Notes under the pieces: generated by a model
Database searches by the model: none
Told to the model about the DNA's origin: nothing
Seen by the model: only the letters and a program-made list of their open reading frames with translations
Position numbers and translations under genes: made by a program
Sequence record: MT446422.1
Origin: Escherichia virus TH57
DNA: 64,000 nucleotides
Strand: one strand, 5' to 3'
In this document: one piece after another, positions 228 through 56,770 of the stretch
Position numbering within the stretch: the stretch's first letter is position 1
How the letters are laid out: each line of letters begins with the position of its first letter

Positions 228-780
228 TTAGGAGTTCCATTATTTTCAGTAACCCCTTAACAGGACCATTCGGACCCGGGATTGCTAATGTGCTTGTGAT
301 ATCGTCTGCCCACTTAGCAACAAAAGCAGGCATATCCAGAAAGTCTGGAACGTCGTCCCCGAGATAAAGAGTCTCCAGAAGATTGTCAACTGGTCCAAAT
401 TCTTCATACGGTTTATTAGAGCGGAATTTAAATGTCTTTCCTTGATAAGAGAATTCAAGGCGCTGGCAGATATAAACATCATCCAGCTTATATGTAAACC
501 CATTAATCTCGCGTTTGTCTTTTAGCTTACCATTAAATTCCAGGAGGTGTAAAGATACAAAGTCGGATTCAGCTGCTGTAAGATTAGGGAATATCGATTG
601 CATAATCTTTCTTAATGCAGCGTAAGGGTTAGGCTCGTTTTTAATCAGATTGTGATGCTTAAGCCCAAGCTTAGGAACGTGAATCTCTTTATCACCCAGC
701 TGTATTTTCTTCGTCGGCAGAATTAGTTTTAAGTTCATTTTTAACCTTCGGTGGTTCTTCAACTTCGATAGGCTTACCAT
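220..780 (-). CDS. 28: baseplate hub distal subunit gp28
   Basis: 186 aa ORF directly downstream of gp27 in T4 order 51-27-28-29; start may be the internal Met ([11 protein letters not shown]), which would reduce the overlap with gp27. Confidence 0.65.
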
Positions 781-1861: not shown

Positions 1862-2610
1862 TTTTTCAAGTCCTTCTCAACTAACGATAAAGCAATACCT
1901 CGTTCGATAGGAATCATATGCATGATGCTATCCAGCGAATATTGATTCTTTACCAGCAAGTGGTTAATTTGGTAAAATACAAAGACTTCATCCGGGTTAA
2001 GGATAAGCTTAAAGACGTCAAGCAGGTCGGTGTATTCGGTTTTGTGTTTTTCGCAGCAACCATATGTAAATGGAATATAAACTGAATGCATTTTCTTAAG
2101 GAGCTCTTCGAGACTCTCTATATCAATTGCGTCAATAACCTGCATCTTCGTTTCTTCAGGAAGGTCTTCCCAATTGTATTTTTGTTCTGAGTCTTCGACA
2201 GTCTGGATGGTGTTTAGAACAAGCTCCGACTTATCTTTATATTCCACTTCGGGGAACTTAAATTGTATTTTTATCCCCGCGGTTTCCATTGTTGGATTTG
2301 TCAATGGGCCTTGGCTCATATTAAACAAAGTCTGCTTTGTCTTTTTACATTTTTGACATTCGAACGCTACCGGGACTTTTGTCTTACCGATAGAGGAAGT
2401 GAATACCTTCAAGAATATGTATGGCCTCCATGCTTTCGGATACTCTCCAAAATAATCTTCCAACAGTTCGTCTAATAATTGTTTTTGTTCTTCGACGGGT
2501 TTGTTGTTCATGTCGTTTCGCACAAGCAGTAAATCACGGTAATCAGCGACTGTAAACGGTTTGAAACGATGAACTCCGTCTGGCATTTCGCATCTTACGA
2601 TATTGGCCAT
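1858..2610 (-). CDS. 51: baseplate hub assembly catalyst gp51
   Basis: 250 aa ORF immediately upstream of gp27, same size and position as T4 gp51. Confidence 0.7.
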
Positions 2611-2663
2611 AGAATCCCCTTTTATCTTTATTGATATTTATAAATACAGTAAAGGAGCAAATT

Positions 2664-3287
2664 ATGACTTATGAATTTATTGTCCAAATTAAAAATAAAA
2701 CTATAAATTGTAGGGCTTTTACCTTGCGCGAATACAAAGATTTGCTTCAGGCAAAATTAGAAAAGCGTATGGAACCTGCAATAATTGAACTGCTTAATAA
2801 ATGCACTGATGCTAAAGGGTTAAACAAACAGGAAGCCGAGCTGCTTCTTATTAATCTCTGGGCAAATAGCCTCGGAGCTGTTAACGTCGAGCATACATGG
2901 GTATGTGAGTGCGGAAAGGAACAAGATATTCCTGTGACTATAAGTCGTGCAAGCATCGTGGATGAGTCTGAAGTTATTCGTGATTTCGGGGCATTTAAAA
3001 TTAAATTTCGTTATCCTGGACTGTTTGAAGACGGTGATAAAGGAAAAATGATTGCTTGTTGTATTGAATATATTATCACGGAAGGCGGTGAGCGCATCGT
3101 TGTTGATGACTTAAATGAAGCCGAAATCGAGGACCTGTACAATGCAATTACCCTCGATGATATAAATGCACTAACGGAAGAACTTCTCAAGCCACAGGTC
3201 CAAATGGCTATTCCTATCTCTTGCGAGTGTGGAGCGCATTCTGTCCATGTAATTAAGGGGCTTAAAGAATTCTTTAAGTTTATGTAA
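2664..3287 (+). CDS. 26: baseplate hub subunit gp26
   Basis: ATG at 2664 preceded by AAGGAG; about 207 aa; position between 51 and 25 as in T4. Confidence 0.7.
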   Translation: MTYEFIVQIKNKTINCRAFTLREYKDLLQAKLEKRMEPAIIELLNKCTDAKGLNKQEAELLLINLWANSLGAVNVEHTWVCECGKEQDIPVTISRASIVDESEVIRDFGAFKIKFRYPGLFEDGDKGKMIACCIEYIITEGGERIVVDDLNEAEIEDLYNAITLDDINALTEELLKPQVQMAIPISCECGAHSVHVIKGLKEFFKFM

Positions 3288-3677
3288 ATGAATATAAACA
3301 AAATGTATAGCGATGTGTCTCCTGACTTGTCAATGAGTTGGGATAAAGACGTTGCTAAAGTAACCGGTGCAAGGTCTGTTAAGAACAGTCTTCTGGGTAT
3401 AATCACCACAAGAAAAGGGTCAAGGCCTTTTATGCCTGAATTTGGATGTGATATAAGTAATCAGCTTTTTGAGAATATCACACCATTAATCACAGATACC
3501 ATTAAACGCAACATCGTCTCCGCGGTGCGGAACTTCGAACCAAGGATAAGCAATTTACAGGTTGCAGTTGTCCCTATGTATGATGATAACTCCATTATCG
3601 TAACGGTTCAGTTTAGCATTGTTGATGACCCTGACACCCTCGAACAAATCAGGATTCAGTTAAGTCAAAACGGTTAA
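3288..3677 (+). CDS. 25: baseplate wedge subunit gp25 (gpW/lysozyme-like fold)
   Basis: 129 aa; MNINKMYSDVSPD...SLLGIITTRKGSRPF.PEFGCD matches remembered T4 gp25. Confidence 0.9.
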   Translation: MNINKMYSDVSPDLSMSWDKDVAKVTGARSVKNSLLGIITTRKGSRPFMPEFGCDISNQLFENITPLITDTIKRNIVSAVRNFEPRISNLQVAVVPMYDDNSIIVTVQFSIVDDPDTLEQIRIQLSQNG

Positions 3678-3730
3678 TGCTTTAATTTTATGGCTGTATA
3701 ATGGTTCTAGACCCTTACATTGGATACATT

Positions 3731-4165
3731 ATGAAAACAGAGATTGAATATAAGTTAGAAGTCTTTCAGGATGAGTTAGATGCAGATTTAAAAATTGATG
3801 GTACTCAACTTCAATATGAAACACAAAACAACGTTTTGTTGCATAGCAAATGGTTGAGATTGTATACCAACTGCAAGAAAGAAATAATGCGTCTTGAGAT
3901 TCAGAAGAAAACTGCACTGAAAAAACGGCTAGACCATTATACAGGAAGGGGTGACCCAGGGGAAGAAGTATGCATGGATGTATACGAGAAGTCAGAATTG
4001 AAAACAGTCATGGCCGCAGATTCAAACATACTGAAGATTGATACTTCAATTCAGTATTGGGCACTACTCCAGGACTTCTGTAGCGCTGCATTAGATGGTG
4101 TTAAGTCACGAAGTTTCGCACTTAAACATATGTTAGAAATAAGACAATTCGAGGCAGGCAAGTAA
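3731..4165 (+). CDS. uvsY: recombination mediator UvsY
   Basis: KIDGTQLQYETQNNVLLHSKWL...IQYWALLQDFCSAALDGVKSRSFALKHM matches remembered T4 UvsY; start taken at internal Met MKTEIEYK; MotA-box middle promoter upstream. Confidence 0.9.
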   Translation: MKTEIEYKLEVFQDELDADLKIDGTQLQYETQNNVLLHSKWLRLYTNCKKEIMRLEIQKKTALKKRLDHYTGRGDPGEEVCMDVYEKSELKTVMAADSNILKIDTSIQYWALLQDFCSAALDGVKSRSFALKHMLEIRQFEAGK

Positions 4166-4398
4166 TGCGATATTCTATCGACGATGCGTTTAACCAAGAC
4201 GAAGAGTTCGAAGAAGAAATTAAGTATATGATGAAGGAATGGAAATTGAATCGCGCAGATATTCGTATCTGCGCTGACCACCCTTGTGGTGAAGATGTTA
4301 TCTATGTTAAAGGTAAATTTGCAGGATACATCGATGATGCGTTCTATTCTCACAATATGGGGATAGATACCGGTATGAGATACTTTAAGGAAAATTAA
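4165..4398 (+). CDS. hypothetical protein (position of T4 uvsY.-2)
   Basis: 77 aa ORF overlapping uvsY stop (ATGA junction). Confidence 0.5.
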   Translation: MRYSIDDAFNQDEEFEEEIKYMMKEWKLNRADIRICADHPCGEDVIYVKGKFAGYIDDAFYSHNMGIDTGMRYFKEN

Positions 4399-4509
4399 AT
4401 GAAAAATATTAGTAAGATTCTCGACGAGATGGTTATCTCTGCAAACCGAATAACTGAAATTGTTAATGAGATGAAAGCTCGTGCTGCTATTATGAAGAGC
4501 ACTAAATAG
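4399..4509 (+). CDS. hypothetical small protein (36 aa)
   Basis: ATG immediately after preceding stop; MKNISKILDEMVISANRITEIVNEMKARAAIMKSTK; below ORF-track size cutoff. Confidence 0.3.
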   Translation: MKNISKILDEMVISANRITEIVNEMKARAAIMKSTK

Positions 4510-4537
4510 ATATGTAAGTTTAACTGAGGAGACAATC

Positions 4538-4705
4538 ATGTCAGATAAGATTTGTGTTGTCTGTAAAACTCCAATCGATTCTGCATTGGTTGTGGATACA
4601 GACCAAGGTCCGGTGCATCCGGGCGCCTGTTATAATTATGTTCAGAGTTTGCCAGTTACGGAAAATACAGAAGAGCAACTGAACGAGACCCAACTTTTAA
4701 TTTAG
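4538..4705 (+). CDS. hypothetical small Cys-containing protein (55 aa)
   Basis: GAGGAG 7 nt upstream of ATG; MSDKICVVCKTPIDS...; followed by hairpin terminator. Confidence 0.4.
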   Translation: MSDKICVVCKTPIDSALVVDTDQGPVHPGACYNYVQSLPVTENTEEQLNETQLLI

Positions 4706-4730
4706 CTAGTGTTGTTAACCATTTTTGGTT

Positions 4731-4762
4731 TTGCCCCTTCCTTTTGGTTGGGGCCTTTTTAT
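4731..4762 (+). terminator. rho-independent terminator (GCCCC..GGGGC hairpin + T-run)
   Basis: gccccttccttttggttggggcc followed by tttttattt, at the convergence of the plus uvsY cluster and minus uvsW.1. Confidence 0.55.
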
Positions 4763-4990
4763 TTAGAAATCTTCGTCTTCGTCGTCGTCCATATCCTCAA
4801 GCTCGGCGCGTTTACCGGCAAGAGCATCACGAACACTGATATCATCGGAATCTTTTAGTTCAGCTTCTTTGCTGCGTTTTTTATAATAGCCTTCCAACTC
4901 CTTCAGACCGTCCATGGTCTGACAGGAACCAATCTTAGCCATAAAGCCTTCAATTGATGCTTCGTACATAATTTCTTCAAAGGATTTCAT
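4763..4990 (-). CDS. uvsW.1: UvsW.1 small acidic protein
   Basis: 75 aa ORF immediately downstream of uvsW, acidic C-terminus, same arrangement as T4. Confidence 0.7.
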   Translation of the reverse strand: MKSFEEIMYEASIEGFMAKIGSCQTMDGLKELEGYYKKRSKEAELKDSDDISVRDALAGKRAELEDMDDDEDEDF

Positions 4991-6489
4991 TATATTTCCA
5001 CCTGTTTAATTACATAATTGAATTGTTCGTCTGCATATCGTTGTATGCGTTCAAGACCATGCTTTAGAGCAAAGTTCAAATGAACATATTTCTTTTTAGC
5101 ATTTGCTGATTTAGGTTTAACACCCATATCATCAACGATATCAAAAACGTTTGCGGTCGATTTAGATTCATGTTTTCGAAGCACACGGCCAATTGTCTGG
5201 AGTACAATTACCTTTGATTTGACCGGGTGAGCGAAAATAATATGATGAAGGTTTTTAACGGAAATCCCCGTCGAGAATACACCATATGAAGCTACAACAA
5301 TAATTCCCTTTCCATTCTCTGCCATGACCTTCAGAGCATTACGGGTTTCGGTATCAACTTCCCCGGAAACATAATACACTTTCTCATGACCAGCTTCCTT
5401 AAGCATTTCAAACATCGATTTGCCATGCTCGATATTCTTAAACATCAAAAAGACGTTTTCATCTTTTTTAGCAAGCTTGAGAGCAAGATTTGTTACCCAT
5501 TTATTTCGGCGTGTAGCTTTTGTAATTACCTTAATTTCATCCTGATAAGTTTTACCTTTCATTTTAACGGTAAATTCATCAGGATAACGAAGGAAAATAC
5601 TATTTATTTTAAGGTCAGTAACCTGACCGTCTTCCATCAATTTAGATGTTGATACTGGTTTAAAGATATCACCAAACAGACCCATATATTGCATAAGGTT
5701 GGCTTTGCCGTCACGGAGTGAGCCTGACAGACCAAATTTAAACATACAATTCGTAAGGCCTTCGATAACCGTCGAAATTGATTTACCTGTAGCCATGTGA
5801 CATTCGTCATTCATAAACTGGCCGAACTGTTCAAACCATTCTTTAGGTTGTTTTACAGCCGTCTGATAAGTCGATACATAAATCATCGCATCAGAATCGC
5901 GTTTAGTCCCGGAACGAATACCCAGACAAGCTTCACGAGGGAAAAGCCGATAATCAACAAAGTCATTAATCATCTGGTCAACAAGCGCGGTTGTAGGAAC
6001 AAGGATAAGCACCTTGCCTTCATAGTTCTCGAGATAATATCGCGCCAGAAGCGCCTGGATGAGGCTTTTACCCGCAGACGTAGGTAAGTTCAGAATCTTT
6101 CTTCTGTTGACCAGACCATCATATACGGCGTCAGATTGATACCAATGGGGCGTTATCTTAGTATTGCCTGAATAGATTTCTTTTGACTCGACCCATTTGT
6201 CGAATTCTTCGCGAGAGATTTCTTCTTTCTCGGTGATTTGTGGGTCAATCCAGAATGAATAGCCAAACTGGTCAGCGAACTTTTTAATTTGATTAACCAA
6301 ACCGTATGGTAATTTACGATTGTAATCCAGGAGGCGGATTCGTCCGTCCCAAACTCCCTGCTTGAATTTTGGATTGAAGCGATAGTTTTCAGCTTCGAAG
6401 CTGAAGTAATCACGGAGTTCGTAGAAGATTCCATCTTCACATTCAACATGCACGTGACTAAAATTTAGAAAGTTGATTTTAATATCCAT
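4990..6489 (-). CDS. uvsW: UvsW RNA-DNA / DNA-DNA helicase
   Basis: SF2 helicase motifs (PTSAGKS Walker A, DECH box); about 499 aa from ATG at 6489; ORF-track start at 6528 is non-ATG and was not used. Confidence 0.9.
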   Translation of the reverse strand: MDIKINFLNFSHVHVECEDGIFYELRDYFSFEAENYRFNPKFKQGVWDGRIRLLDYNRKLPYGLVNQIKKFADQFGYSFWIDPQITEKEEISREEFDKWVESKEIYSGNTKITPHWYQSDAVYDGLVNRRKILNLPTSAGKSLIQALLARYYLENYEGKVLILVPTTALVDQMINDFVDYRLFPREACLGIRSGTKRDSDAMIYVSTYQTAVKQPKEWFEQFGQFMNDECHMATGKSISTVIEGLTNCMFKFGLSGSLRDGKANLMQYMGLFGDIFKPVSTSKLMEDGQVTDLKINSIFLRYPDEFTVKMKGKTYQDEIKVITKATRRNKWVTNLALKLAKKDENVFLMFKNIEHGKSMFEMLKEAGHEKVYYVSGEVDTETRNALKVMAENGKGIIVVASYGVFSTGISVKNLHHIIFAHPVKSKVIVLQTIGRVLRKHESKSTANVFDIVDDMGVKPKSANAKKKYVHLNFALKHGLERIQRYADEQFNYVIKQVEI

Positions 6490-6517
6490 GATGATTCCAA
6501 GGTAATAAATATATCTA

Positions 6518-6525
6518 TATTTATA
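6518..6525 (-). promoter_or_regulatory. T4-type late promoter box TATAAATA
   Basis: exact TATAAATA on minus strand about 30 nt upstream of uvsW start. Confidence 0.6.
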
Positions 6526-6543
6526 CACTAACCGAGGTTCATC

Positions 6544-7212
6544 ATGATTGACAAGAACTACATTGAGGAAATTCGTGTCCTCGAGAAAAAAGAAGCCAAA
6601 GAAAAATTAGCCGAATACGCAGCATCACTTGGCGTTGATGTTAAGAAAACAAAAACCTTTGATAATATGTTGGCTGACCTGGAAGCAGGACTTAAAGCAT
6701 TTGCTGACATGCCTATGCCTGATGATAATGAAGGCCTGAGCATCACTGACCTTATCGATGCCGACGATGAATTATCTGGTGCTAAATTCGAAGGGGATGA
6801 GTCCGCTAAAGAAGAAGCCAAACTATTATTTGATGCTCCAACCGAAGTAAAGGTTGAAGTTGTAGAAATCGAAAAACCTGCAACAGTTTTGGTTGAAGAA
6901 GATGTTCCCTTTGTCGAAGAGAAATTCAAAGAGGCTGTAGCCAAGGTTATCGAATCTGAAAAACCTGTATTTGCTCTGCCAAAAAACTTTAGTCCAAATC
7001 TTATGCTTATTGGCAAGAACCCTGGATTCTGTACTGTCCCATGGTGGATTTATCAGTGGATTGCCGAGACTCCAGATTGGAAAGAACGTCCAACTGCTTT
7101 CCCACATCCCACCGCACACCAAACTCTATTCAGTTTGATTTATTACATCAATCGTAATGGGTCTGTTCTAGTAAGAGAAACTCGTAACTCATCTTTTGTC
7201 ACTTTAAAATAA
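6544..7212 (+). CDS. inh: hypothetical protein in the position of T4 inh (prohead protease inhibitor)
   Basis: 222 aa ORF with GAGG RBS, between uvsW and hoc as in T4; assignment is positional only; C-terminal 60 aa look atypical. Confidence 0.4.
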   Translation: MIDKNYIEEIRVLEKKEAKEKLAEYAASLGVDVKKTKTFDNMLADLEAGLKAFADMPMPDDNEGLSITDLIDADDELSGAKFEGDESAKEEAKLLFDAPTEVKVEVVEIEKPATVLVEEDVPFVEEKFKEAVAKVIESEKPVFALPKNFSPNLMLIGKNPGFCTVPWWIYQWIAETPDWKERPTAFPHPTAHQTLFSLIYYINRNGSVLVRETRNSSFVTLK

Positions 7213-7221
7213 GGGTTTATT

Positions 7222-8355
7222 ATGGCTTATACCGTAGATATTGCTCCTTTGGCGGCCACAGCCGTTATTGGAGCAACAACCAATTTCACTGCGACCGGTT
7301 CCGGTGCTGCAGCTGAAGGTACCGAATCATTTGTTTGGACCGTTGATGGCGTTCCTCAATCTTCTGTGACTGCTGCAATGGATTATGTTGCTGTTGGTCC
7401 AGCAGGCAGTAAGACTATTAAAGTTGTTGCAACTACCACTCCGGCAGACGGCGAACCAGAAACTGCTGAGGCTGAGACAACTTTAACTATCCAGAATAAA
7501 ACAATGCCGGCAATCACGCTGACTTTAGACCCAGCCTCTGTTACTAAAGAAATAGGACAATCTCAAGTTGTTACAGCTAATATTAGCGGGCAACCAGATG
7601 GAGCGTCCGCTTCTTATGTATGGAAACGAAATGCTGACGTAATCCCAGGGCAAACTGGTAAAACAATCACCATCACCGAATCGGCTGAAGCAAATTATAC
7701 ATTGAACTGTGAAGTTACTGTTTCAGCAACAGATTATGATAATGGCACCGCAACTAAAAGCGCAGTAGTTACCTTTGTTAAGAAAACTATGTCAGGTGTT
7801 TCTGTTACATTAACCCCAGAATCAATTAATGTTCCGGAAGGTACCCCGGCTTCTTTTAAAGCGGATGTAGTCGGCGCACCTAGTGGAGCTACTTTTGCCT
7901 ATTCTTGGAAGAAAGATGGTTCTCCTGTAGTTGGCACCACGGATACTCTAGCAATCGACACAAGCACCGAAGGTTCCCAGGTTATTGAAGTTTCTGTTGT
8001 GGTTTCGGCGACTGATTATGACCCGGCGACTGTCACAAAAACCGGTAATGTAACAGTCACGGCTAAAGTCGCACCAGTTCCAGATGGCGAATTACCTTAT
8101 GTTCATCCATTGCCGGTACGTAATTCAGCTTATATCTGGTGTGGTTGGTGGGTTATGGATGAAATTCAGAAAATGGCTCTTGCCGGGCAAGACTGGAAAA
8201 CCGATGCCCCAGATAGCCCATATTATTTGCACCGATACACACTTCAAAAAATGATTACCGACTATCCAGAGGTTGATGTACAAGAATCTCGTAATGGTCG
8301 AATTATTCATCGCACCGCTTTAGAAGCTGGTATTATATACGATTACGTTTATTAA
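7222..8355 (+). CDS. hoc: head outer capsid protein Hoc (Ig-like domain repeats)
   Basis: 377 aa; repeated Thr/Val-rich Ig-like segments; size and position match T4 Hoc. Confidence 0.8.
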   Translation: MAYTVDIAPLAATAVIGATTNFTATGSGAAAEGTESFVWTVDGVPQSSVTAAMDYVAVGPAGSKTIKVVATTTPADGEPETAEAETTLTIQNKTMPAITLTLDPASVTKEIGQSQVVTANISGQPDGASASYVWKRNADVIPGQTGKTITITESAEANYTLNCEVTVSATDYDNGTATKSAVVTFVKKTMSGVSVTLTPESINVPEGTPASFKADVVGAPSGATFAYSWKKDGSPVVGTTDTLAIDTSTEGSQVIEVSVVVSATDYDPATVTKTGNVTVTAKVAPVPDGELPYVHPLPVRNSAYIWCGWWVMDEIQKMALAGQDWKTDAPDSPYYLHRYTLQKMITDYPEVDVQESRNGRIIHRTALEAGIIYDYVY

Positions 8356-8361
8356 TTAAAA

Positions 8362-8388
8362 AGGGACCTTCGGGTCCCTTTATTTTTA
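8362..8388 (+). terminator. rho-independent terminator
   Basis: gggaccttcgggtccc hairpin followed by tttattttt directly after hoc. Confidence 0.75.
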
Positions 8389-8471
8389 TGGTACTGAGCA
8401 AACGTTGCCTGGGCCCCTTTCTCCGGTAAGTCCTTGTGGCCACCATAACAATTGTTCATCTGGCATAAAAA

Positions 8472-8506
8472 CATGTTTACAAGTTAAAAATTCCATGTTA
8501 AGATAG
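8472..8506 (+). promoter_or_regulatory. sigma70-type early promoter candidate
   Basis: GTTTAC, 18-nt spacer, TAAGAT, upstream of ORF at 8522. Confidence 0.4.
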
Positions 8507-8521
8507 CTTCACCAACTCAAC

Positions 8522-8725
8522 ATGAGAATCATTATGGATAAGGTTAAAGTACATTTTCTGCATGAATCTGGTATGACATTTATTGAAATCGCCAAGGTAT
8601 TAGGCGGGACTGCTAAAGAGATGGCAAAAGCCTGGGTTGATGTAGAACAAGCCAAAGCTAAATTTAAAGCGAAAGAAAAGATTGTTTATCGTAAACGTTT
8701 GAATAACAAAAAGGTGAAGAAATGA
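8522..8725 (+). CDS. hypothetical small basic protein (position of T4 24.3)
   Basis: 67 aa ORF, Lys-rich C-terminus. Confidence 0.45.
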   Translation: MRIIMDKVKVHFLHESGMTFIEIAKVLGGTAKEMAKAWVDVEQAKAKFKAKEKIVYRKRLNNKKVKK

Positions 8726-8985
8726 CATTTGCAGAAGAACTACGCCAAATAGCCAAAGAGTCACAAGATAAAGTTGCAAATGACTTTATTGCTATATTTC
8801 GCAAAGTGGCTATTGCCGCTGCCGAGAATGGCAAAGATGCTGTTAATATGGCAGTTTCTGAAAAAGAGTATGAAGAAGGAAACCGCGCAAAGATATCTGA
8901 ATTTCTGCGGGCAGAAAAATTTACATCATTTACCTGGAATTATGACTGGCAAGAAGCCAAGCCAATGCTGTATGTAAAATTCTGA
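8722..8985 (+). CDS. hypothetical protein (position of T4 24.2)
   Basis: 87 aa ORF overlapping previous stop. Confidence 0.5.
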   Translation: MTFAEELRQIAKESQDKVANDFIAIFRKVAIAAAENGKDAVNMAVSEKEYEEGNRAKISEFLRAEKFTSFTWNYDWQEAKPMLYVKF

Positions 8986-8990
8986 CCCTT

Positions 8991-9030
8991 TTTGCTTCAA
9001 ATAAAAATGCGGTATAATGGTTCTAGACCC
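8991..9030 (+). promoter_or_regulatory. MotA-dependent middle promoter candidate with conserved downstream palindrome
   Basis: MotA box TGCTTCA (8993..8999), 13-nt spacer, TATAAT (9013..9018), then GGTTCTAGACCC. Confidence 0.55.
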
Positions 9031-9114
9031 TTTGTGACTATTAATTCCTTTCAGAGAAAGAAAGTATAGTGGGTCTAATTTATAATGATATTTATAACAT
9101 CAAAGTGAGAGATT

Positions 9115-10122
9115 ATGTTTAAAAAATACAACAGCCTTGAAAATCACTATAACAACAAGTTCATTGAAAAGATTCGTCTACAAGGCTTCACCAGCGGTGA
9201 ATGGGTAGCTCGTGAAAAGATTCATGGTACCAACTTTTCACTAATCATTGAACAAGACAATGTGACATGTGCGAAACGCACTGGACCTATCCTGCCTGCA
9301 GAAGATTTCTATGGATATGAAATTGTATTAAAGAACTATGCAGATTCTATTAAATCTGTACAGAAACTTTTGCAGGATATTAATTACCAGTCATATCAGA
9401 TTTATGGCGAGTTTGCTGGTACAGGTATTCAGAAGAATGTTGATTACGGTGATAAAGATTTTTATGTATTTGATATCCGCGTTACTAAGGAAGATGGCTC
9501 TGAATCCGTCCTGACTGACACACTTATGGAAGCCTTCTGCATTATTCATAAGTTTAAAGTTGCTCCGCGCCTGGCTACCGGAAGCTTTGAAGACCTTATT
9601 AAGCTCCCTAATGACCTGGATTCTGTGGTCCCTGATTACAATTTTACAGTGGATAACGCAGGATTGACTACAGCAAATACCACTGATTTTGATGCAAAGG
9701 TGGAAGGTAAAGTATTCACTGCTGAAGGATTTGTATTAAAACCTGATGTCCCTGCCTGGTTACCTAACGGCGAGCGTGTAGCGATTAAATGTAAGAACTC
9801 TAAATTCAGTGAAAAGAAAAAGTCTGATAAGCCTATTAAGGCTGCTGTTGTGTTGTCCCAGGAAGACCTGGATATTTTATGGAAGTTCACTGATTATGTG
9901 ACTGTTAACCGCATCAATAATGTTATCAGTAAGATTGGGGAAGTATCGCCGAAGGATTTTGGGAAGGTAATGGGTTTGACTGTCCAGGATATCCTGGAAG
10001 AAGCGGGTCGTGAAGGCCTTGAATTAACCCAGACGGAAAATCCTGTTGAAGTTAAAAAGCAACTTATCGCAAATGTAAGAGAAACATTAAGACATGTTTG
10101 GATTGCATTAATTAGTGAATAA
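9115..10122 (+). CDS. rnlB: RNA ligase 2 (Rnl2)
   Basis: 335 aa; near-identical stretches to remembered T4 Rnl2 ([64 protein letters not shown]). Confidence 0.95.
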
Positions 10123-10125
10123 AAA

Positions 10126-10150
10126 GGGCCGCAAGGCCCTTATTCTTTTT
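10126..10150. terminator. bidirectional hairpin terminator
   Basis: gggccgcaaggccc flanked by A-run and T-run, between convergent rnlB and gene 24 paralog. Confidence 0.7.
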
Positions 10151-11423
10151 CCAGTGGTGGAAGTTTAACACCAAGATAAGAACTCAATTGGCTTTGGTTG
10201 GCCATCTTATCCATATCAGCTCCATCAATAATGCGAGCTTCTTTATCATCTTTAGCAACCGTGTAAGGGTTCGCTGTCAATGCATAACGAGCTAACAGTG
10301 CAACCGTAGGCTGTAAGCTTTCAGGGTCAACAATAACCTTGAATTCCCCAACCGAGGTATCACCCTCATCATCAACTTCGCTAAGCCCTTCCGTATAAGG
10401 CGCATAATACAAAGATGCGACCGTCTGACCCTCGCCCATATCCGCATTTACACCAACAATAACATAATCGCATGGACTATTCATATCTGCATAAAGAGGC
10501 AAACCGTTCTTCAGAACACCATAGGCCAATTCATCCTGGTCTTCCTTTTTCTCAACCCAACCAGAAGCGGCTAAAATAGCTGCACAACGGGAAGAAGCAA
10601 CCGCATATGTACCAGCAAACGAAGTCTGACGTTGAACTGCAGAATTCATTTCACACATATAATAATACAGGGTTCGTGCGCGGTCCTGTGCGTTATCATA
10701 TTTCGGGTCAGTGAGATTCAACACACCTTTTTCAGAAACACCTTGGACCTTGAAGCGGGAACTAACAGTAATAAGGGATTGCAATACATCCTTATTAATT
10801 TCCTCTGCCATTTGAATGCCGAGAATATTATCGATGAAGTCTGTTGCATCGAAACCGTTTGCTTCCAGGTCCTGGGCAAGCTCGACAGTTAAAGAAGTTT
10901 TCAACTTTCTGGATTTAACTTCAGTCTGCCATTTATCGATACGGAAACCAGCTTCAGCAATTTCAGGATGCCCCTTTTCAAATTTATCAGTGAAAGCAGC
11001 ATCTGACATCATTCTTATATGTCCAGCAGCAATGGCTTCAGAAATAACTTCACCTAAATCAGTTTCGAGTGTCCCGGCAAAGGGAGAAGCTTCCAGAACT
11101 TTGAATACAACGCTTTCAAACTGAAACATATCGCCGACTGCATAAGCTTCGTCTTTGTTCGTAAATTCTGGGATATTCTTACGCTCGAACATACCAATCT
11201 GGCCCGCGAATGTTGCTCCACCGAGATAAGTCATTTTATCATCTGGGTTCAGAACACGAACACCATACAGCGCTGCAACAGGCTGGGTAGTTTTCTGTTC
11301 GGCCACGAGTGCTTTAAAAATTCGTTTATTCGTAGCCTGGGTATAAGAAAGCAAATTAGGACGGGCGACCTGGTTGGCCGCCGTTAATGTTGATTCATGA
11401 ATTAGTGCATTAATCTTTTGCAT
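10140..11423 (-). CDS. 24: capsid vertex protein gp24 paralog (second copy)
   Basis: 427 aa; clear similarity to the adjacent gp24 copy and to gp23 fold (C-terminal FKVIVDPESLQP...ANPYTVAKDDKEARIID). Confidence 0.85.
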   Translation of the reverse strand: MQKINALIHESTLTAANQVARPNLLSYTQATNKRIFKALVAEQKTTQPVAALYGVRVLNPDDKMTYLGGATFAGQIGMFERKNIPEFTNKDEAYAVGDMFQFESVVFKVLEASPFAGTLETDLGEVISEAIAAGHIRMMSDAAFTDKFEKGHPEIAEAGFRIDKWQTEVKSRKLKTSLTVELAQDLEANGFDATDFIDNILGIQMAEEINKDVLQSLITVSSRFKVQGVSEKGVLNLTDPKYDNAQDRARTLYYYMCEMNSAVQRQTSFAGTYAVASSRCAAILAASGWVEKKEDQDELAYGVLKNGLPLYADMNSPCDYVIVGVNADMGEGQTVASLYYAPYTEGLSEVDDEGDTSVGEFKVIVDPESLQPTVALLARYALTANPYTVAKDDKEARIIDGADMDKMANQSQLSSYLGVKLPPLEKE

Positions 11424-48485: not shown

Positions 48486-48560
48486 GGCCCTTTAGCTCAA
48501 TGGGAGAGCTGTCAGCTCATAACTGATAGGTAGCTGGATCGAAACCAGCAAGGGCCACCA
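48486..48560 (+). tRNA. tRNA with anticodon CAT (Met, or Ile if lysidine-modified)
   Basis: hand-folded cloverleaf: acceptor GGCCCTT/AAGGGCC, D stem GCTC/GAGC, anticodon stem GTCAG/CTGAT with loop CTCATAA, T stem GCTGG/CCAGC, encoded CCA. Confidence 0.8.
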
Positions 48561-48564
48561 AACG

Positions 48565-48641
48565 CGGGGTGTAGCTCAATTGTATAGAGCAACGGTCTTC
48601 TAAACCGTAGGTTGTGGGTTAGAATCCCACCACCCCGACCA
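48565..48641 (+). tRNA. tRNA-Arg (anticodon TCT)
   Basis: hand-folded cloverleaf: acceptor CGGGGTG/CACCCCG, anticodon stem ACGGT/ACCGT with loop CTTCTAA, T arm GTGGG-TTAGAAT-CCCAC, encoded CCA; T4 also carries tRNA-Arg(UCU) here. Confidence 0.8.
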
Positions 48642-51762: not shown

Positions 51763-52317
51763 ATGAGCTTATATACTGACCTTATATCAAATGTAGACTG
51801 GTTTGGCGGTAGTGGCCTTGCTACCGAAACTAATACAGTTCTTTATAGAATCCGTGGCGACTTGGGTTATTCCAATGATTTCTTAAGAAGAACAACAAGT
51901 CGCGGTGATACTACAAAATTGCCTTTTATTTTTGCTTTAGCTGAAGACCTTTCTTTCGCAGATGCCTTGGAAATTATTGATGTAAATCTGGGTATTCAAC
52001 GAGTGGAATTCGCTGGACTACGTTATTCAGTATATGCTTTAAACGAGAGCGATGATTGTATACTTCTTAATATGGCAGATGATGATTACCATTTAGTATG
52101 TTATGTGGCGCTAGAAAATGGTGATGTATTTGGAATGGTTGACCGTCGGCCAGCTTATACTGATATTAAAAATTATGATAAAGCTGAGCTTCTTGATTTG
52201 ACGGCTGAGTACACATTAGAAAGTCATAAACAAAAACGAAAGCTTAATCGTTTTATTGCTGAATGTCGTGAATATGCTAAGGGGGTTCAAAATGCGAACG
52301 TTATATCTGCCAAGTAA
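51763..52317 (+). CDS. hypothetical protein
   Basis: 184 aa from ATG at 51763 (RBS GGAGAGGAG). Confidence 0.5.
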   Translation: MSLYTDLISNVDWFGGSGLATETNTVLYRIRGDLGYSNDFLRRTTSRGDTTKLPFIFALAEDLSFADALEIIDVNLGIQRVEFAGLRYSVYALNESDDCILLNMADDDYHLVCYVALENGDVFGMVDRRPAYTDIKNYDKAELLDLTAEYTLESHKQKRKLNRFIAECREYAKGVQNANVISAK

Positions 52318-52651
52318 ACCAGAAAAATTTGTATACGCAGACAAGATTGATAAAGACCTTATGCCTCCATTTGGAGCTTTGTCCATGTGCATCGTTGGGG
52401 TTATAATGATGGTGCTTTGTGGGGATATGGATATCATTAGTGTCGGAGTCGCCTGGGCACTAATAATCGCAGCTCCTTTTATTACCGTCCTGAGCATGAT
52501 ATTGATAAATGTGTGGCATCAAAATCATATGAATAAAGGATATCGTGGTCGAGTTAAAGAGTGGGAACAAAAATGTGTTTCCCTACAAGAAGAGCACAAA
52601 ATTAAATGTGCCGAAGAATTTATTAAGGAGGTTCGTAATGGAACGGCCTAG
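52292..52651 (+). CDS. hypothetical membrane protein
   Basis: 119 aa from ATG at 52292; two predicted TM helices; C-terminus ...EEFIKEVRNG. Confidence 0.5.
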   Translation: MRTLYLPSKPEKFVYADKIDKDLMPPFGALSMCIVGVIMMVLCGDMDIISVGVAWALIIAAPFITVLSMILINVWHQNHMNKGYRGRVKEWEQKCVSLQEEHKIKCAEEFIKEVRNGTA

Positions 52652-52991
52652 TCTTGCCTCACATGTTTATCAATTGGCTGAATATGATATTGGTGGCAAT
52701 TTATTATTAGGGATTGTCACCGCCATGCTTGGTGGTTTGGTTGGTCTGGTAATGACCACGGTTATGGCTGCAATCGAGGGAGTCATGCCTATTGAGATGG
52801 GGTTCTTTATGATAATCGCTCCGGCTGTTGTGGCTTATTTTATCCCTGTTGTGTATGATATCTGTCACACAAACGCCGTGAATGCTCCTAGTCGGAAGAG
52901 ATATGCTTCAGCAATGGCTGAGTATAATAAGTTCCTAGACAAAACAAAACGTAATGACCTTGAAACCTTTATTAAGGAATGTAAATCATGA
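52638..52991 (+). CDS. hypothetical membrane protein (paralog of preceding gene)
   Basis: 117 aa from ATG at 52638 (RBS AAGGAGG); TM helices; C-terminus ...ETFIKECKS. Confidence 0.5.
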   Translation: MERPSLASHVYQLAEYDIGGNLLLGIVTAMLGGLVGLVMTTVMAAIEGVMPIEMGFFMIIAPAVVAYFIPVVYDICHTNAVNAPSRKRYASAMAEYNKFLDKTKRNDLETFIKECKS

Positions 52992-53278
52992 ATAAAATTG
53001 AAATTGCTATCCCCAAGTATTATGATGAGAAATCTGCAGAAAAAGCTATCTATTCTCTTCTAAATAAGACCTCTGAAATTGAAAAACACTGTGAAGAAAT
53101 CGCAGATGAATATGGCATCGAATTCAGCACTGGCGATTACGGCACCGGCCGTACATATCACCCAGTCGGTTATGAATGTTCCGAATGGTTCGCTCACCAT
53201 ATTGAAAACAACGGCGGACAAGTTGAAAACGGCATTGTTACTGTTGGTGCCTGGGTTTCCTCTTCTGAGGTGTGCTAA
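52988..53278 (+). CDS. small protein, member 1 of tandem W-x-S-S-x-x-C tail family
   Basis: 96 aa ending GAWVSSSEVC; internal EEIADEYG motif. Confidence 0.6.
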   Translation: MNKIEIAIPKYYDEKSAEKAIYSLLNKTSEIEKHCEEIADEYGIEFSTGDYGTGRTYHPVGYECSEWFAHHIENNGGQVENGIVTVGAWVSSSEVC

Positions 53279-53279
53279 T

Positions 53280-53561
53280 ATGATGAATGATTACCGTAAA
53301 AATAAAGAACTGGCTAACGCAGTAAATGATATCCATAAAGCTATTCGTCGTGCCGAGGAAATTGCAGACAAATATGAGACTCATTTTAATATATACCCTG
53401 CTCGCGGTATGGGCGGTGACTATTATTCTCCTGGCGCCTTGAAAGCCGACCTTGCTCATTGGGAAGAACATGGTCATCCTGAATGGGCTATTGTTAATAC
53501 TCATGACTATACAACTGACCTGGAAAATGGTGGTTGGGTGTCCTCTTCTGTTGAATGTTAA
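53280..53561 (+). CDS. small protein, member 2 of tandem W-x-S-S-x-x-C tail family
   Basis: 93 aa ending GGWVSSSVEC; EEIADKYE motif. Confidence 0.6.
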   Translation: MMNDYRKNKELANAVNDIHKAIRRAEEIADKYETHFNIYPARGMGGDYYSPGALKADLAHWEEHGHPEWAIVNTHDYTTDLENGGWVSSSVEC

Positions 53562-53570
53562 GGAATTATT

Positions 53571-53768
53571 ATGTCTCGTGAATTAGATTGTGCAATCCGT
53601 ACTGCCGCGGCAGCTATTGAAAACGTTATCCAGATTTGTAAAGAAGAACGTGAAGAAGCCGACATCTATATCGAAGGTGAAAACCATCTGGACCGTCATA
53701 TCACGATTTACAATGGCTGTATTACAATTACGGGTGGCTCCTGGGTGTCCTCCTCTTACGAATGCTAA
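53571..53768 (+). CDS. small protein, member 3 of tandem W-x-S-S-x-x-C tail family
   Basis: 65 aa ending GSWVSSSYEC. Confidence 0.6.
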   Translation: MSRELDCAIRTAAAAIENVIQICKEEREEADIYIEGENHLDRHITIYNGCITITGGSWVSSSYEC

Positions 53769-53777
53769 GGAAATAAA

Positions 53778-54005
53778 ATGACTGCTAAAACTGTTAAAGA
53801 AATTGAAGACCAAATCCGTGCACTAATCTGTGAAGGTGAACAACTGGCCGATAAAACTGGTGAATACTTTCATGTGTATGCTGACAGTCTTCAACGATAT
53901 ATTCCTGCGGGTTGTCCAGAATACGAAGAGTATGACTGGATTCGCGGTGATTATGGTATCCCAGATGGTAAAGGTTTCTGGTTTAACTCCTCTATGTCTT
54001 GCTAA
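53778..54005 (+). CDS. small protein, member 4 of tandem W-x-S-S-x-x-C tail family
   Basis: 75 aa ending GFWFNSSMSC. Confidence 0.55.
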   Translation: MTAKTVKEIEDQIRALICEGEQLADKTGEYFHVYADSLQRYIPAGCPEYEEYDWIRGDYGIPDGKGFWFNSSMSC

Positions 54006-54014
54006 GGTGATAAA

Positions 54015-54248
54015 ATGACTACTGCTGTTGAATATGCTGAATTAGAAAAAGCTGCCCTTGAATTGGCTGCGCTGTATAAGAAAGTAAAAGATATGGCGTC
54101 TGCTCAAGATTTCGGTGTTGAGCTTGATGATTATGACGGCGAAGTCCGTCTTGAAGACTGGTTGAACAGCTCTTGTTATGGTGAAGAAGCGGGCCGTACC
54201 TTCGTTGCTCGTGCCGATGGTAAAATCTGGTACCCGAGCAGCTGCTAA
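54015..54248 (+). CDS. small protein, member 5 (divergent) of tandem W-x-S-S-x-x-C tail family
   Basis: 77 aa ending KIWYPSSC, with an internal WLNSSCYGEE. Confidence 0.5.
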   Translation: MTTAVEYAELEKAALELAALYKKVKDMASAQDFGVELDDYDGEVRLEDWLNSSCYGEEAGRTFVARADGKIWYPSSC

Positions 54249-54278
54249 AATTATCACAAGGATGTGATAGGAGGACTT

Positions 54279-54608
54279 ATGCACAGAGATTCAGTATTTA
54301 AATATCTTTTAAAAACAGATAAAGAATTTTATATGGATGGACAAGCATTCTTGTTCGTTCGCGGTAAGCGTGAAATGTTTTATAAATGCGACCTCTCCAT
54401 GCATCATCACATGTACCATACCCATGGCGAGTCCATACTAGGGTTCTCTGGTGATGAGACTAAACATATAGCTATGTATTATGACCATTTCAAGCTCAAT
54501 GATTGTGGTGATAATGCTTTGGTCTGGAATCCATCTTGGTGCCGGTGGGATACAATAGACAACAATAAATTATTTTTAGAATATTGCAGAAGTAGTATAC
54601 AACTCTAG
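54279..54608 (+). CDS. hypothetical His/Cys-rich protein
   Basis: 109 aa from ATG at 54279 (RBS AGGAGG); HHHMYHTHGE motif suggests metal binding. Confidence 0.5.
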   Translation: MHRDSVFKYLLKTDKEFYMDGQAFLFVRGKREMFYKCDLSMHHHMYHTHGESILGFSGDETKHIAMYYDHFKLNDCGDNALVWNPSWCRWDTIDNNKLFLEYCRSSIQL

Positions 54609-54672
54609 AAAATCGTGTTACTATTCTCTTATCAACTGATGACAATCACGTTATCAGAACAGGAGAATAAAA

Positions 54673-54873
54673 ATGTCTATCGCAAACGAATTAATCAAAG
54701 TTCTGAACGAAGCCAAAGCCAACCAACTGGAGGTTAATCTCCAGGAAGTTTCAGATGGCATTAAAGTAACCATCAGCGGCGATGGCGTTCCAGGCACTAC
54801 AGAGGTTTACGATTCTTTGGAAGAAGTGGTTTCTTGCATTAAAAGAGCCGTTTACTTATATGGTATAATTTGA
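54673..54873 (+). CDS. hypothetical small protein
   Basis: 66 aa, RBS AGGAGA. Confidence 0.5.
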   Translation: MSIANELIKVLNEAKANQLEVNLQEVSDGIKVTISGDGVPGTTEVYDSLEEVVSCIKRAVYLYGII

Positions 54874-54883
54874 GGAAAATATT

Positions 54884-55051
54884 ATGTATAATGTTCTTAT
54901 TGTTTTTGTCACTCACCCGCAAGGTGGAGTAAGACAGAATACTTCTCAAGTGGTTCAATTTTCTTCACTAGAGGCCGCCAATCTTGCTGCCTCACGAATT
55001 GAAGCGAAAAAATCGGCACTTGGAAAATATGAAGTAACTCGTCTTTACTAA
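54884..55051 (+). CDS. hypothetical small protein (55 aa)
   Basis: ATG preceded by conserved TGAGGAAAATATT initiation region; below ORF-track cutoff. Confidence 0.4.
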   Translation: MYNVLIVFVTHPQGGVRQNTSQVVQFSSLEAANLAASRIEAKKSALGKYEVTRLY

Positions 55052-55064
55052 TGAGGAAAATATT

Positions 55065-56024
55065 ATGATGTTAGTTATTGGCTCTCGCGCATTGCATAAC
55101 GCCGGTCTGATTGAAAGTAAGAAAATTGAAAACTCTGATTGGGACTTTATAGCAGACCAAGGTTCCTGGAACAACTTTAAAACCCAGATGATGGGGCAGC
55201 ACGTGCATGTGGATAACCCAGATGTTCAAGCTTTTAAATGTATGCACAATGGCAAAGAAACCTATTTTGAAGCATACATCGTCCGGGCACTGACAAGTGT
55301 TCGTGAACTGACTGATGAGTTACAAGAGGAAGATTTTACCTCTAGTTATCGTCTGCTCAAATATGCGAAGGCGAATATTCAGAAAGACCGTCTATCTGGT
55401 TTTTACTGGGCGACTCCTGATATTTGTCTGGCAATTAAACTGTCTCATCGTTACCTGAAGAACAATCCATTCTTCCTGAAGACCATGAGTCATATTAATT
55501 ACCTTCGCAATAAGGGTGTTGTTCTTAATGATGAACTGCAGAAAATTATGCAACAACGCCAGGCAGAAACACTGTCATATAGTCACCCTAAACTAGATGT
55601 GGGCAAGAAAACTTTCTTTAATGATACAATCTATACCCTTGACCATGACTCCATCCACGAGGCTGTGGCGCTTGCTGATAAGCCTGCATATAAGTTCTAT
55701 ATGAAGGATGATTCAGAAGTCATGACCTCGCGTGAAAAATTTGAAGCACTCCCTGAGATTATTAAACTGGCTGGGGTTTATGAAGAAGCATGTGTACTTG
55801 CTCTGGAGCGTTCGCAGGTTCCCAATGAGTTCAATATCTCTCCATCCGTGAGCTTCCATATTGCTCTGGAAAAAGTCTGCACCTCCATTACTTCTGGATG
55901 GTTCCGCGAGTATGCCTGGGAACATTACCAGGAAGTGGTTAATATGTACAACACCCTGGGTCACGAAGACTATGTTAAACGTTTCAAAGCTAACCAGCAT
56001 TTAATTCGCCCTTTCGAAAAATAA
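55065..56024 (+). CDS. putative nucleotidyltransferase-fold protein
   Basis: 319 aa; N-terminal IGSRALHNAGLIESKKIENSDWDF fits the Pol-beta-type NTase signature G[GS]x(9-15)DxD; remainder unassigned. Confidence 0.45.
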   Translation: MMLVIGSRALHNAGLIESKKIENSDWDFIADQGSWNNFKTQMMGQHVHVDNPDVQAFKCMHNGKETYFEAYIVRALTSVRELTDELQEEDFTSSYRLLKYAKANIQKDRLSGFYWATPDICLAIKLSHRYLKNNPFFLKTMSHINYLRNKGVVLNDELQKIMQQRQAETLSYSHPKLDVGKKTFFNDTIYTLDHDSIHEAVALADKPAYKFYMKDDSEVMTSREKFEALPEIIKLAGVYEEACVLALERSQVPNEFNISPSVSFHIALEKVCTSITSGWFREYAWEHYQEVVNMYNTLGHEDYVKRFKANQHLIRPFEK

Positions 56025-56026
56025 TT

Positions 56027-56060
56027 GTGTACATCCAAGTGGGACTATGACACAATAGTC
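56027..56060 (+). promoter_or_regulatory. early promoter-like cassette with 10-bp inverted repeat
   Basis: gtgtac followed by GTGGGACTAT-gacaca-ATAGTCCCAC; -10 assignment uncertain. Confidence 0.35.
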
Positions 56061-56083
56061 CCACAATCAATGAGGAAAATATT

Positions 56084-56770
56084 ATGAACGGTCCAAAAAC
56101 TTTTAATTCTCAAGCTCATGCAGTAGGCAGTTTCGCTGGTAAAATTTCTAATGATAAAATCAAAAACGAAACTATGTTCTTCAACAGCTCATTGGCTTTC
56201 GCTTTTGACAATGGCGGTCCTATTACTCGTAGCTTTATCATGAGTCTGCCGGATGATTGGAACACTGACCAGGTTGTATTTGATTCTCGGGTTCATATGC
56301 TGATGCCTGGTTGGTATCCCGCTATCCCAGGTTATCACCATGATGATGTACCACGCCCGGATATTCCGGTTGGTCAACACTTTATTACTGCAGGGCAACC
56401 TGATTATGATAATCCTCGTTACCATTCTGAACATATTCTTGGTCTTGTTAACGCTGATGTGTGTCCTACTTATTTTGCAACCGGAACTGCAGAATTCAGT
56501 CAGATTCCTGAAGGCGAACTTATCTATCGCCAGTGGCATAAAGAAGTTCTGGAAAAAATTGAGTCCAATGAATTAACCAAGTGGGATGCTCCTGACCGCA
56601 CGTTGCTCCAGTTTGATTGGCAGACATGGCATACAGGTTCTCGTGCAGTAAGTAACGGTTGGCGCTGGTTTGGTCGTGTGTCTCGTAATACCGACCGTGT
56701 TAAAAAGATTACAAATGAAATCCGCGTTAATGCTCAAGTATATCTGGAATTCCCTATGGAGGGCTGGTAA
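56084..56770 (+). CDS. hypothetical protein, His-rich (possible metal-dependent enzyme)
   Basis: 228 aa; YHHDD and RYHSEH motifs; no confident family assignment. Confidence 0.5.
   Translation: MNGPKTFNSQAHAVGSFAGKISNDKIKNETMFFNSSLAFAFDNGGPITRSFIMSLPDDWNTDQVVFDSRVHMLMPGWYPAIPGYHHDDVPRPDIPVGQHFITAGQPDYDNPRYHSEHILGLVNADVCPTYFATGTAEFSQIPEGELIYRQWHKEVLEKIESNELTKWDAPDRTLLQFDWQTWHTGSRAVSNGWRWFGRVSRNTDRVKKITNEIRVNAQVYLEFPMEGW

Follow-up and report, generated by a model that had tools for sequence, protein, structure and literature searches.

A stretch of DNA from Escherichia virus TH57 (sequence record MT446422.1, 64,000 nucleotides, here called the window) carries a tandem array of five small plus-strand genes at 52988-54248, whose products end in a shared tail built around W-x-S-S-x-x-C. 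The five open reading frames (ORFs) are old paralogs and real members of a family of small, acidic alpha/beta proteins that is confined to phages. The family is almost always found just upstream of one conserved, enzyme-like gene encoding a protein with the domains DUF7277 and DUF7275, and this linkage is near-obligate and specific. The small proteins and the DUF7277-DUF7275 protein (referred to below as the partner) probably work together. Their pairing is a new result. Literature searches with PHROG and DUF identifiers, locus tags and motif strings returned nothing relevant, and no paper was found that describes either the pairing or the tail consensus.

The five genes and their family

The window holds exactly five family genes and one partner gene (Table 1). 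The original prediction, made from the sequence alone, described five tightly packed ORFs with a common extreme C-terminal tail, and both the genes and the tail were recovered as described. In an alignment of the five proteins, all agree at W, S, S and the terminal C; the other members share just 19-30% overall identity with member 1, and the tail of member 5 is two residues shorter than the other four. Among the 679 stop-to-stop segments of at least 40 amino acids (aa) in the six frames of the whole window, the five array members are the only ones to end in W..[ST][ST]..C, against a composition-based chance expectation of 0.002. Intergenic gaps of 1, 9, 9 and 9 nt separate the genes. Three of the junctions (53559-53573, 53766-53780 and 54003-54017) read TAA-GG(A/T)-N6-ATG, a TAA stop fused to a GGA or GGT Shine-Dalgarno element with a gap of exactly 9 nt, and at the front of the array the start of member 1 and the stop of the preceding gene share an ATGA. 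Judged from the DNA, this layout is the pattern of translated, coupled genes.

Table 1. Coordinates of the array, its partner gene and associated features in the window
Feature	Position	Strand	Description
Family member 1	52988..53278	+	96 aa; 'GDYGxGRTY.P' hairpin type; tail W-V-S-S-S-E-V-C (...GAWVSSSEVC) at 53252-53275
Family member 2	53280..53561	+	93 aa from the ATG at 53280; 'GMGG.YY' hairpin type; ...GGWVSSSVEC, tail at 53535-53558; protein modelled
Family member 3	53571..53768	+	65 aa, shortest of the five; ...GSWVSSSYEC, tail at 53742-53765
Family member 4	53778..54005	+	75 aa; F-W-F-N-S-S-M-S-C (...GFWFNSSMSC), tail at 53979-54002
Family member 5	54015..54248	+	77 aa; ...KIWYPSSC, shortened tail W-Y-P-S-S-C at 54228-54245; internal D-W-L-N-S-S-C-Y-G
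Conserved partner gene	55065..56024	+	319 aa; N-terminal DUF7277 (PF23942, E 2.7e-27) and C-terminal helical DUF7275 (PF23940, E 2.7e-76)
Candidate T4-type middle promoter	52902..52928	+	MotA-box-like TATGCTTCA-N12-TATAAT inside the 3' end of the upstream gene; 60 bp upstream of member 1
Three lineage-specific small ORFs, array to partner	54279-54608, 54673-54873, 54884-55051	+	PHROGs 9796, 14244, 20278; unknown function

The array belongs to a catalogued family that has no assigned function. Four members match phrog_899 (member 1, E 1.3e-21; member 2, E 6.1e-20; member 4, E 3.5e-15; member 5, E 2e-9), whereas member 3 matches phrog_4882 (E 3.3e-36) and phrog_899 weakly. A hidden Markov model (HMM) of the family recognised member 1 (E 1.7e-21), member 3 (E 1.3e-6) and member 5 (E 0.0023), and 93 of 94 aligned relatives match phrog_899. 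Both PHROG entries are annotated 'unknown function', and neither describes a motif, a structure, a partner or a function. When the five proteins were scanned against Pfam, NCBIfam and PADLOC, none reached a curated cut-off (the best matches were at chance level, E at least 0.035); scans of the neighbouring proteins were likewise uninformative, and sequence and profile searches of the PDB with the family gave no significant match. The statement that the tail could be assigned to no known T4 family still stands, since neither these databases nor the literature hold a named family or described function for it. Relatives with like tails are widespread in other phages and keep the consensus. Searches with tblastn detected them in 310 phage records from Escherichia, Klebsiella, Citrobacter, Edwardsiella, Kosakonia, Acinetobacter and other hosts, and Klebsiella, Enterobacter and Edwardsiella-type phages have orthologs of member 4 that end in FW[FY][NST]SSM..C. 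When 1.84 billion representative proteins were searched exhaustively with a profile, 93 clusters at 50% identity emerged, all of 65-119 aa and all with the match reaching the C-terminus.

Members of the family share one architecture: an N-terminal amphipathic helix ending in AExIADExG-h-x-F, a Gly/Tyr hairpin (AYGMGGTYYP or GDYGxGxTYYPKGT), an acidic linker rich in W, D, E and S, and the tail, with the consensus [ED]-G-x-W-[VILM]-S-S-S-x-x-C. The N-terminal regions had been called variable, which is true of the bodies in general and untrue of the helix end and the hairpin, both conserved family-wide. The resemblance noted between members 1 and 2 (EEIADEYG and EEIADKYE) is real and forms part of the AExIADExG motif. 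Counted back from the terminal Cys in 89 clusters, W occupies position -7 in 88, S position -4 in 88 and S position -3 in 83, and the Cys itself is present in all 89; a few clusters have one extra residue after it. The mean isoelectric point of the family is 4.6. In 54 of 91 family proteins the terminal Cys is the only Cys, and it therefore has no conserved intramolecular partner for a disulfide or a zinc site. The retention of the terminal Cys after Ser-Ser and Trp in every cluster suggests a specific chemistry or recognition.

The constraint on the tail acts on the protein. Differing Ser codons within the array had already been taken as a sign of this, and the wider comparison makes the case more strongly: among 111 distinct tails taken from other phages, every one of the six Ser codons is found at the two invariant serine positions (AGY in 21-31%), the terminal Cys is encoded 75 times by TGC and 36 times by TGT, and each of the three stop codons is represented. 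In member 5 the tail serines are AGC AGC. The original prediction had named an overlapping RNA element as a finding that would refute it. Some support for such an element, or for one of translation initiation, comes from the three members whose stop codon overlaps the Shine-Dalgarno element of the next gene (TAAGGA or TAAGGT) at the fixed 9-nt spacing. This reading is effectively refuted by the use of all six Ser and both Cys codons at invariant positions, by equal conservation of the motif where no family gene follows, and by the coevolution in the protein alignment that yields a confidently predicted fold. An Rfam scan of 52000-56500 found no RNA family over the tails; its sole match was a chance long non-coding RNA (E 0.55) outside the array.

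The W-x-S-S motif also behaves as a reusable unit, since internal copies exceed expectation: 17 of 347 distinct members carry an extra copy, compared with 1.1 ± 1.0 in shuffled sequences. Most lie just ahead of the terminal copy, as in DRWESSSEGWESSSEGWVSSSSQC, and an internal W-x-S-S-x-C-Y-G copy recurs in the subfamily of member 5.

The fold predicted for these proteins is confident and looks novel. With a 94-sequence alignment, the AlphaFold model of member 2 reached a predicted local distance difference test score (pLDDT) of 94.6 and a predicted template modelling (TM) score of 0.81; an earlier 16-sequence alignment had given a poor model (pLDDT 60). The model comprises a helix (residues 2-31), two strands (35-41 and 44-49), a second helix (51-63), a short helix, a strand formed by G-W-V-S-S (84-88) and a turn (89-92). 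It thus predicts a compact domain in which a long amphipathic helix lies on a three-stranded sheet, with W-x-S-S as the last strand and the Cys at a flexible end. An independent BFVD model of a homolog from a Yersinia phage superposes on it with TM-scores of 0.80/0.86, and structure comparison of the model found no solved structure that matches the fold. The tail had originally been pictured as a free signal appended to diversified heads. The model speaks against this picture, in that W-x-S-S is predicted to be the third beta-strand of the domain itself (pLDDT >90) and flexibility is confined to the last three residues, the Cys included (pLDDT about 62). A thioredoxin-fold monothiol of the S-x-x-C type was rejected, because such an assignment demands a thioredoxin fold in which helix 1 has the motif at its N-terminus, and the family does not show this.

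Near-obligate pairing with a DUF7277-DUF7275 gene

Distant family members on 150-kb metagenomic phage contigs are followed directly by a gene for a DUF7277-DUF7275 protein of 307-309 aa, as found in the window at 55065-56024. The pairing was tested in both directions, with loci fetched either through the partner (80 loci from IMG/VR) or through the small protein (by the pattern of the YGMGGTY subfamily), and with family genes called by the HMM at E <=1e-3. Of the 80 loci fetched through the partner, 71 carry one to six family genes on the same strand, nearly all 0.1-2.2 kb upstream. The other nine comprise four with divergent members recognised by eye (such as ...DWDSSSANC and ...WQSSQQNC), two that have no upstream sequence, one with a degenerate tail, and two related loci (L039 and L040) that clearly have no family gene; with the divergent members left out or included, the count is 71-75 of 80. 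When 36 new loci were fetched through the small protein, the partner gene lay 0-1.4 kb downstream on the same strand in 33, and the other three reached the end of the contig within 0.9 kb, so that pairing among complete loci was 33/33.

The linkage is also specific. When all neighbouring ORFs were clustered across 53 dereplicated loci (partner proteins below 70% identity), the family was the sole broadly shared neighbour, present in 47 of the 53; the next family was present in 7. The pair is found in differing genomic contexts: between e.4 and e.2 in the window, between gene 41 and 61.1 in Acinetobacter phage Stupor, and also in phAPEC8-like and jumbo phages. In Stupor (locus L132, 998-1616), three family members in tandem are followed by a gene that carries the annotation 'putative nucleotidyltransferase'. 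In two phAPEC8-like loci of 12 kb (L002 and L003), a blastp comparison with the whole window found homologs for the family genes and the partner gene only. The genes around the pair there (531-10696) encode a resolvase, a Metallophos phosphoesterase, an AAA_28 ATPase and a SIR2-domain protein, and the window has no homolog of any of these. A gene for a 'putative ADP-ribosyl transferase' was observed in Stupor 240 bp downstream of the enzyme gene (L132 3353-3667).

The module is restricted to phages. A survey of one genome per species from 100,044 bacterial and archaeal species returned just five partner loci, all of them on contigs of metagenome-assembled genomes, and four of the five have family genes upstream. 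Among about 50,700 deposited phage genomes, 731 carry the partner gene, including T4-like, phAPEC8-like, phiPsa374-like, jumbo and Acinetobacter phages. In a large protein database the partner has at least 2,560 relatives, essentially all of them unnamed.

The partner was aligned across 55 sequences that include homologs from Bacillus phage G and actinophages. Fifteen residues are invariant (G5, D24, D26, K138, L176, F183, F184, H193, D194, H197, E239, E240, E247, R248 and G277), and S6 (54 of 55), K124, H127, R164 and R280 are nearly so; the DUF7275 domain is rich in invariant K, H, R, D and E. The N-terminus follows the pattern 'hhhIGSxAL...DxDhh...hExEI' (MLxIGSxAL...DxDxI), with hydrophobic flanks and an invariant GS...DxD. 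We take this to read like the G[GS]...[DE]h[DE]h of Pol-beta-type nucleotidyltransferases, a match at the level of the motif. Similarly, 'YDHDSIHEA' may resemble an HD/PDE-type metal motif. Depositors of two Acinetobacter phages have labelled the partner 'putative nucleotidyltransferase'. As a lead from the motif and this annotation, the partner is a putative nucleotidyltransferase-like enzyme.

Other small acidic genes were observed beside distant homologs of the partner. Actinophage DUF7275 homologs share one directly downstream (L085 4746-5081, Streptomyces phage BillNye gp181; L087 4600-4890, Gordonia phage PhinkBoden gp18), whose products bear a faint, non-significant likeness to the strand-hairpin region of the family (DEV..F.V..G.G..Y). 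In Bacillus phage G, gp204 (L086 3202-3555) lies upstream of the enzyme homolog gp205 and is a very acidic protein of 117 aa that ends in ...EEETSSSW, a Ser run and a Trp with no Cys, and has no detectable homology. Comparison of phage G gp204, BillNye gp178 and gp181, and PhinkBoden gp16 and gp18 with the family gave nothing significant.

Proposed recognition of the tail and competing explanations

The explanation favoured here, plausible if short of probable, is that the constant tail and the adjacent Gly/Tyr hairpin form a surface that is recognised by the cognate DUF7277-DUF7275 enzyme. The near-obligate pairing lends indirect support to the idea in the original prediction that the tail could be a shared interaction or modification signal. 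The small proteins and the single downstream partner would then constitute a functional module. The C-terminal turn would present two or three serine hydroxyls together with the terminal thiol and carboxylate, and the small proteins would serve as the enzyme's acceptor substrates or as interchangeable specificity subunits. In the preferred version, the GS...DxD head would transfer a nucleotidyl group to a Ser hydroxyl or the Cys thiol of the tail. Candidate docking places for the tail or hairpin are the GS/DxD pocket and the KVCTSITSGWFRE surface, and the variable helix, hairpin and acidic linker may diversify the host targets of the module. The combination of one conserved enzyme with one to six fast-diverging partners would fit an accessory role in host takeover or counter-defence, with expression from early/middle transcription. 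A rather unlikely extension is that the module is a phage protein-tagging system, in which the enzyme would covalently load a nucleotide or short nucleotide chain onto the tail Ser or Cys of small carrier proteins; as decoys, sponges or inhibitors, the conjugates would then counter RNA repair or nucleotide-based immunity in the host.

We infer the physical contact between the small proteins and the enzyme, as well as the chemistry of the enzyme, the part of Ser or Cys as acceptor and the biological target of the module. Several observations weigh against recognition of the tail by the enzyme. The W-x-S-S segment is predicted to be a core strand, and much of its conservation could be purely structural. 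The middle paralog in Stupor ends in ...NWSNSES and has no terminal Cys. The enzyme homologs of actinophages, which are shorter, have no W-x-S-S-x-x-C neighbour, and L039 and L040 likewise have none; the enzyme can therefore exist without a small partner, and the actinophage cases make the pairing a feature of Gram-negative phage clades. For the enzyme itself, hmmscan against Pfam at E up to 10 returned DUF7277 and DUF7275 only, NCBIfam gave nothing significant, and profile searches of the PDB gave no significant match. With hhalign, neither phage G gp199 nor sequences of class II CCA-adding/poly(A) polymerase and kanamycin nucleotidyltransferase matched the DUF7277 head at a probability above 5.9%. 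Nor does the near-invariant Cys271 of the enzyme covary with the partner proteins: covariation with the terminal Cys was considered and rejected, as the enzymes of L112 and L121 have no Cys271 and yet have Cys-tailed partners. In the PDB searches for the family and the partner, a match to the KEN domain of RNase L was dropped, its E-value having risen from 0.03 to 0.78 with a deeper profile.

Among the alternatives, the small proteins may be ligand-binding sponges, in which the Gly-rich YGMGG hairpin, the Tyr and Trp residues and the Ser-rich tail would bind a small molecule, for instance a nucleotide signal, that the enzyme encoded alongside makes, degrades or modifies; the paralogs would cover different ligands. 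Small acidic proteins in several copies would suit such a role, as would conserved Gly, aromatic and hydroxyl residues of the kind typical of nucleotide-binding surfaces and an enzyme with an HDxxHxA-like motif and many invariant basic residues; moreover, tight linkage falls short of proving contact between proteins. The sponge explanation is nevertheless considered unlikely, if deserving of attention, because the ligand is wholly hypothetical, no reason is given for an obligate Cys as the last residue, and the family has no likeness of fold or sequence to known phage sponges or solved structures. It is also rather improbable that the tail is kept for folding and stability alone, with the W in the core, the Ser residues capping a strand, and the Cys capping the C-terminus or binding metal in an oligomer. 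The small proteins would then act alone on host targets, and linkage to the partner would reflect co-regulation in one pathway with no contact between tail and enzyme. The modelling of W-x-S-S as a confident core strand agrees with this, and the bodies vary as expected for effectors under diversifying pressure. However, a pure fold constraint rarely fixes both the identity and the terminal position of an exposed last residue, as seen in all 89 clusters; folding needs do not readily account for internal duplications of the motif, and the pairing persists through repeated relocation into unrelated neighbourhoods.

Distinctly unlikely is an inhibitory role, in which the small proteins would regulate a potentially toxic enzyme in the manner of an antitoxin or a 'cysteine-switch', the terminal thiol and carboxylate filling a metal site until the enzyme is needed. 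Recognition of the tail by the enzyme is preferred over this role because a slow-evolving enzyme is accompanied by several fast-evolving partners, the last residue is invariant and the motif is sometimes duplicated. Finally, the proteins might be precursors resembling those of ribosomally synthesised and post-translationally modified peptides (RiPPs), with Ser dehydrated and the C-terminal Cys cross-linked (as lanthionine or aminovinyl-cysteine, AviCys) by a dedicated maturase. Tandem precursor-like genes with a constant motif beside one enzyme are in keeping with this, and we take the S-x-x-C-COOH spacing of the tail to resemble the epidermin-type AviCys site. The idea is very improbable all the same: the family is predicted to form compact folded domains (pLDDT 94.6) instead of leader-core peptides, the ten neighbours scanned contain no LanB/C/M, HFCD, YcaO or radical-SAM domain, and the partner has no similarity to such maturases.

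Genomic setting and known systems

This region of the window is 84-97% identical to T4-type Gaprivervirus/Dhakavirus phages such as SP18, P896, VR25 and IME08. In SP18, the syntenic genes are all 'hypothetical' and lie between the tRNA cluster, e.6 and e.4 on one side and e.2, nudE, e, denV and Ip10 on the other. The placement of the array in a variable, 'hyperplastic' region is borne out by this position and by T4, whose syntenic region (tRNAs, e.8 to e.2, nudE, e) contains neither a family member nor the partner gene; the first 50 kb of T4 likewise contain no family member. The window has two tRNA genes at 48486-48641 (Met-CAT and Arg-TCT), where SP18 annotates three (Met, Asn and Arg).

Directly upstream of the array, 52295-52991 holds two overlapping genes for predicted membrane proteins, the e.4-like phrog_2604 and phrog_2330. 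The ATGA overlap of the phrog_2330 gene with member 1 suggests translational coupling into the array. The three small ORFs that separate the array from the partner fall outside the conserved pair: most other loci do not have them, and the end of the family gene there lies 0-700 bp ahead of the partner. The first of them encodes a His/Cys-rich protein of 109 aa (...CDLSMHHHMYHTHGES...). Shigella phage SP18 has an extra ORF of 75 aa (MLKLKKRYIRKING...; L001 6751-6978) between member 5 and the His-rich ORF that the window lacks (54248-54279), which looks like a small indel polymorphism inside the module.

The arrangement of 52295-56024 is consistent with one early/middle transcription unit, because all gaps between its genes are 64 nt or less, a match to a middle promoter lies ahead of the array (Table 1), and pattern matching found no late-promoter consensus TATAAATA in 48-57 kb. 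Similar MotA-box-like matches occur at 48399 and 51059. A scan for sigma-70 promoters and terminators gave background levels.

By the tests applied, the module fits no characterised class, which does not by itself demonstrate a new mechanism. Neither component has a known fold, a functional family name or a published function, and pairing with one dedicated enzyme makes an anonymous motif directly testable as a two-gene system. If the tail is a modification or docking site, it would represent a new enzyme-partner logic in the takeover of the host by phages, and would account for a block of 'hypothetical' genes that recurs in phages used as models or in therapy, RB69, JS98 and the BASEL collection among them. 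If the tagging idea is true, a new post-translational modification module would be present in hundreds of large phages.

The genomic neighbourhood, from the tRNA cluster to e, nudE, denV and Ip10, is shared with the T4 'hyperplastic' genes e.2-e.8 and the internal proteins IpI-III and Ip10. The family was rejected as internal proteins, as inspection found no capsid-targeting leader of that type. Tad1, Tad2 and Acb2/T4 Vs.4 are likewise small, abundant, fast-evolving accessory proteins encoded in variable regions of T-even-type phages, and have no similarity of sequence or fold to the family. To our knowledge, known sponges have neither an invariant terminal Cys nor an obligate enzyme neighbour. 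The multi-substrate logic of RiPPs such as prochlorosins, and that of AviCys lanthipeptides, also combines tandem small genes, one invariant segment, a diversified remainder and a single enzyme. Chemistry on Ser and a C-terminal Cys is possible in both cases, but the small proteins here are folded domains of 65-120 aa and no known maturase domain lies nearby.

Protein-modifying Pol-beta-type nucleotidyltransferases with a dedicated protein partner include MNT-HepT, GlnE-glutamine synthetase and DrrA-Rab1. The R-x4-6-H motif is absent from the small proteins and there are essentially no loci in bacterial genomes, which sets the module apart from MNT-HEPN/AbiE toxin-antitoxin systems. By analogy, the module would resemble MNT-HepT, GlnE-glutamine synthetase and DrrA-Rab1 in placing a G-S...D-x-D enzyme beside a small cognate protein with invariant hydroxyls. 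It differs from them in that searches gave its enzyme no significant similarity to the superfamily, in small partners that are not HEPN RNases, in its occurrence only in phages, in its up to six small partners per enzyme, and in its candidate acceptor, which would be a C-terminal Ser/Cys tail instead of an internal Tyr.

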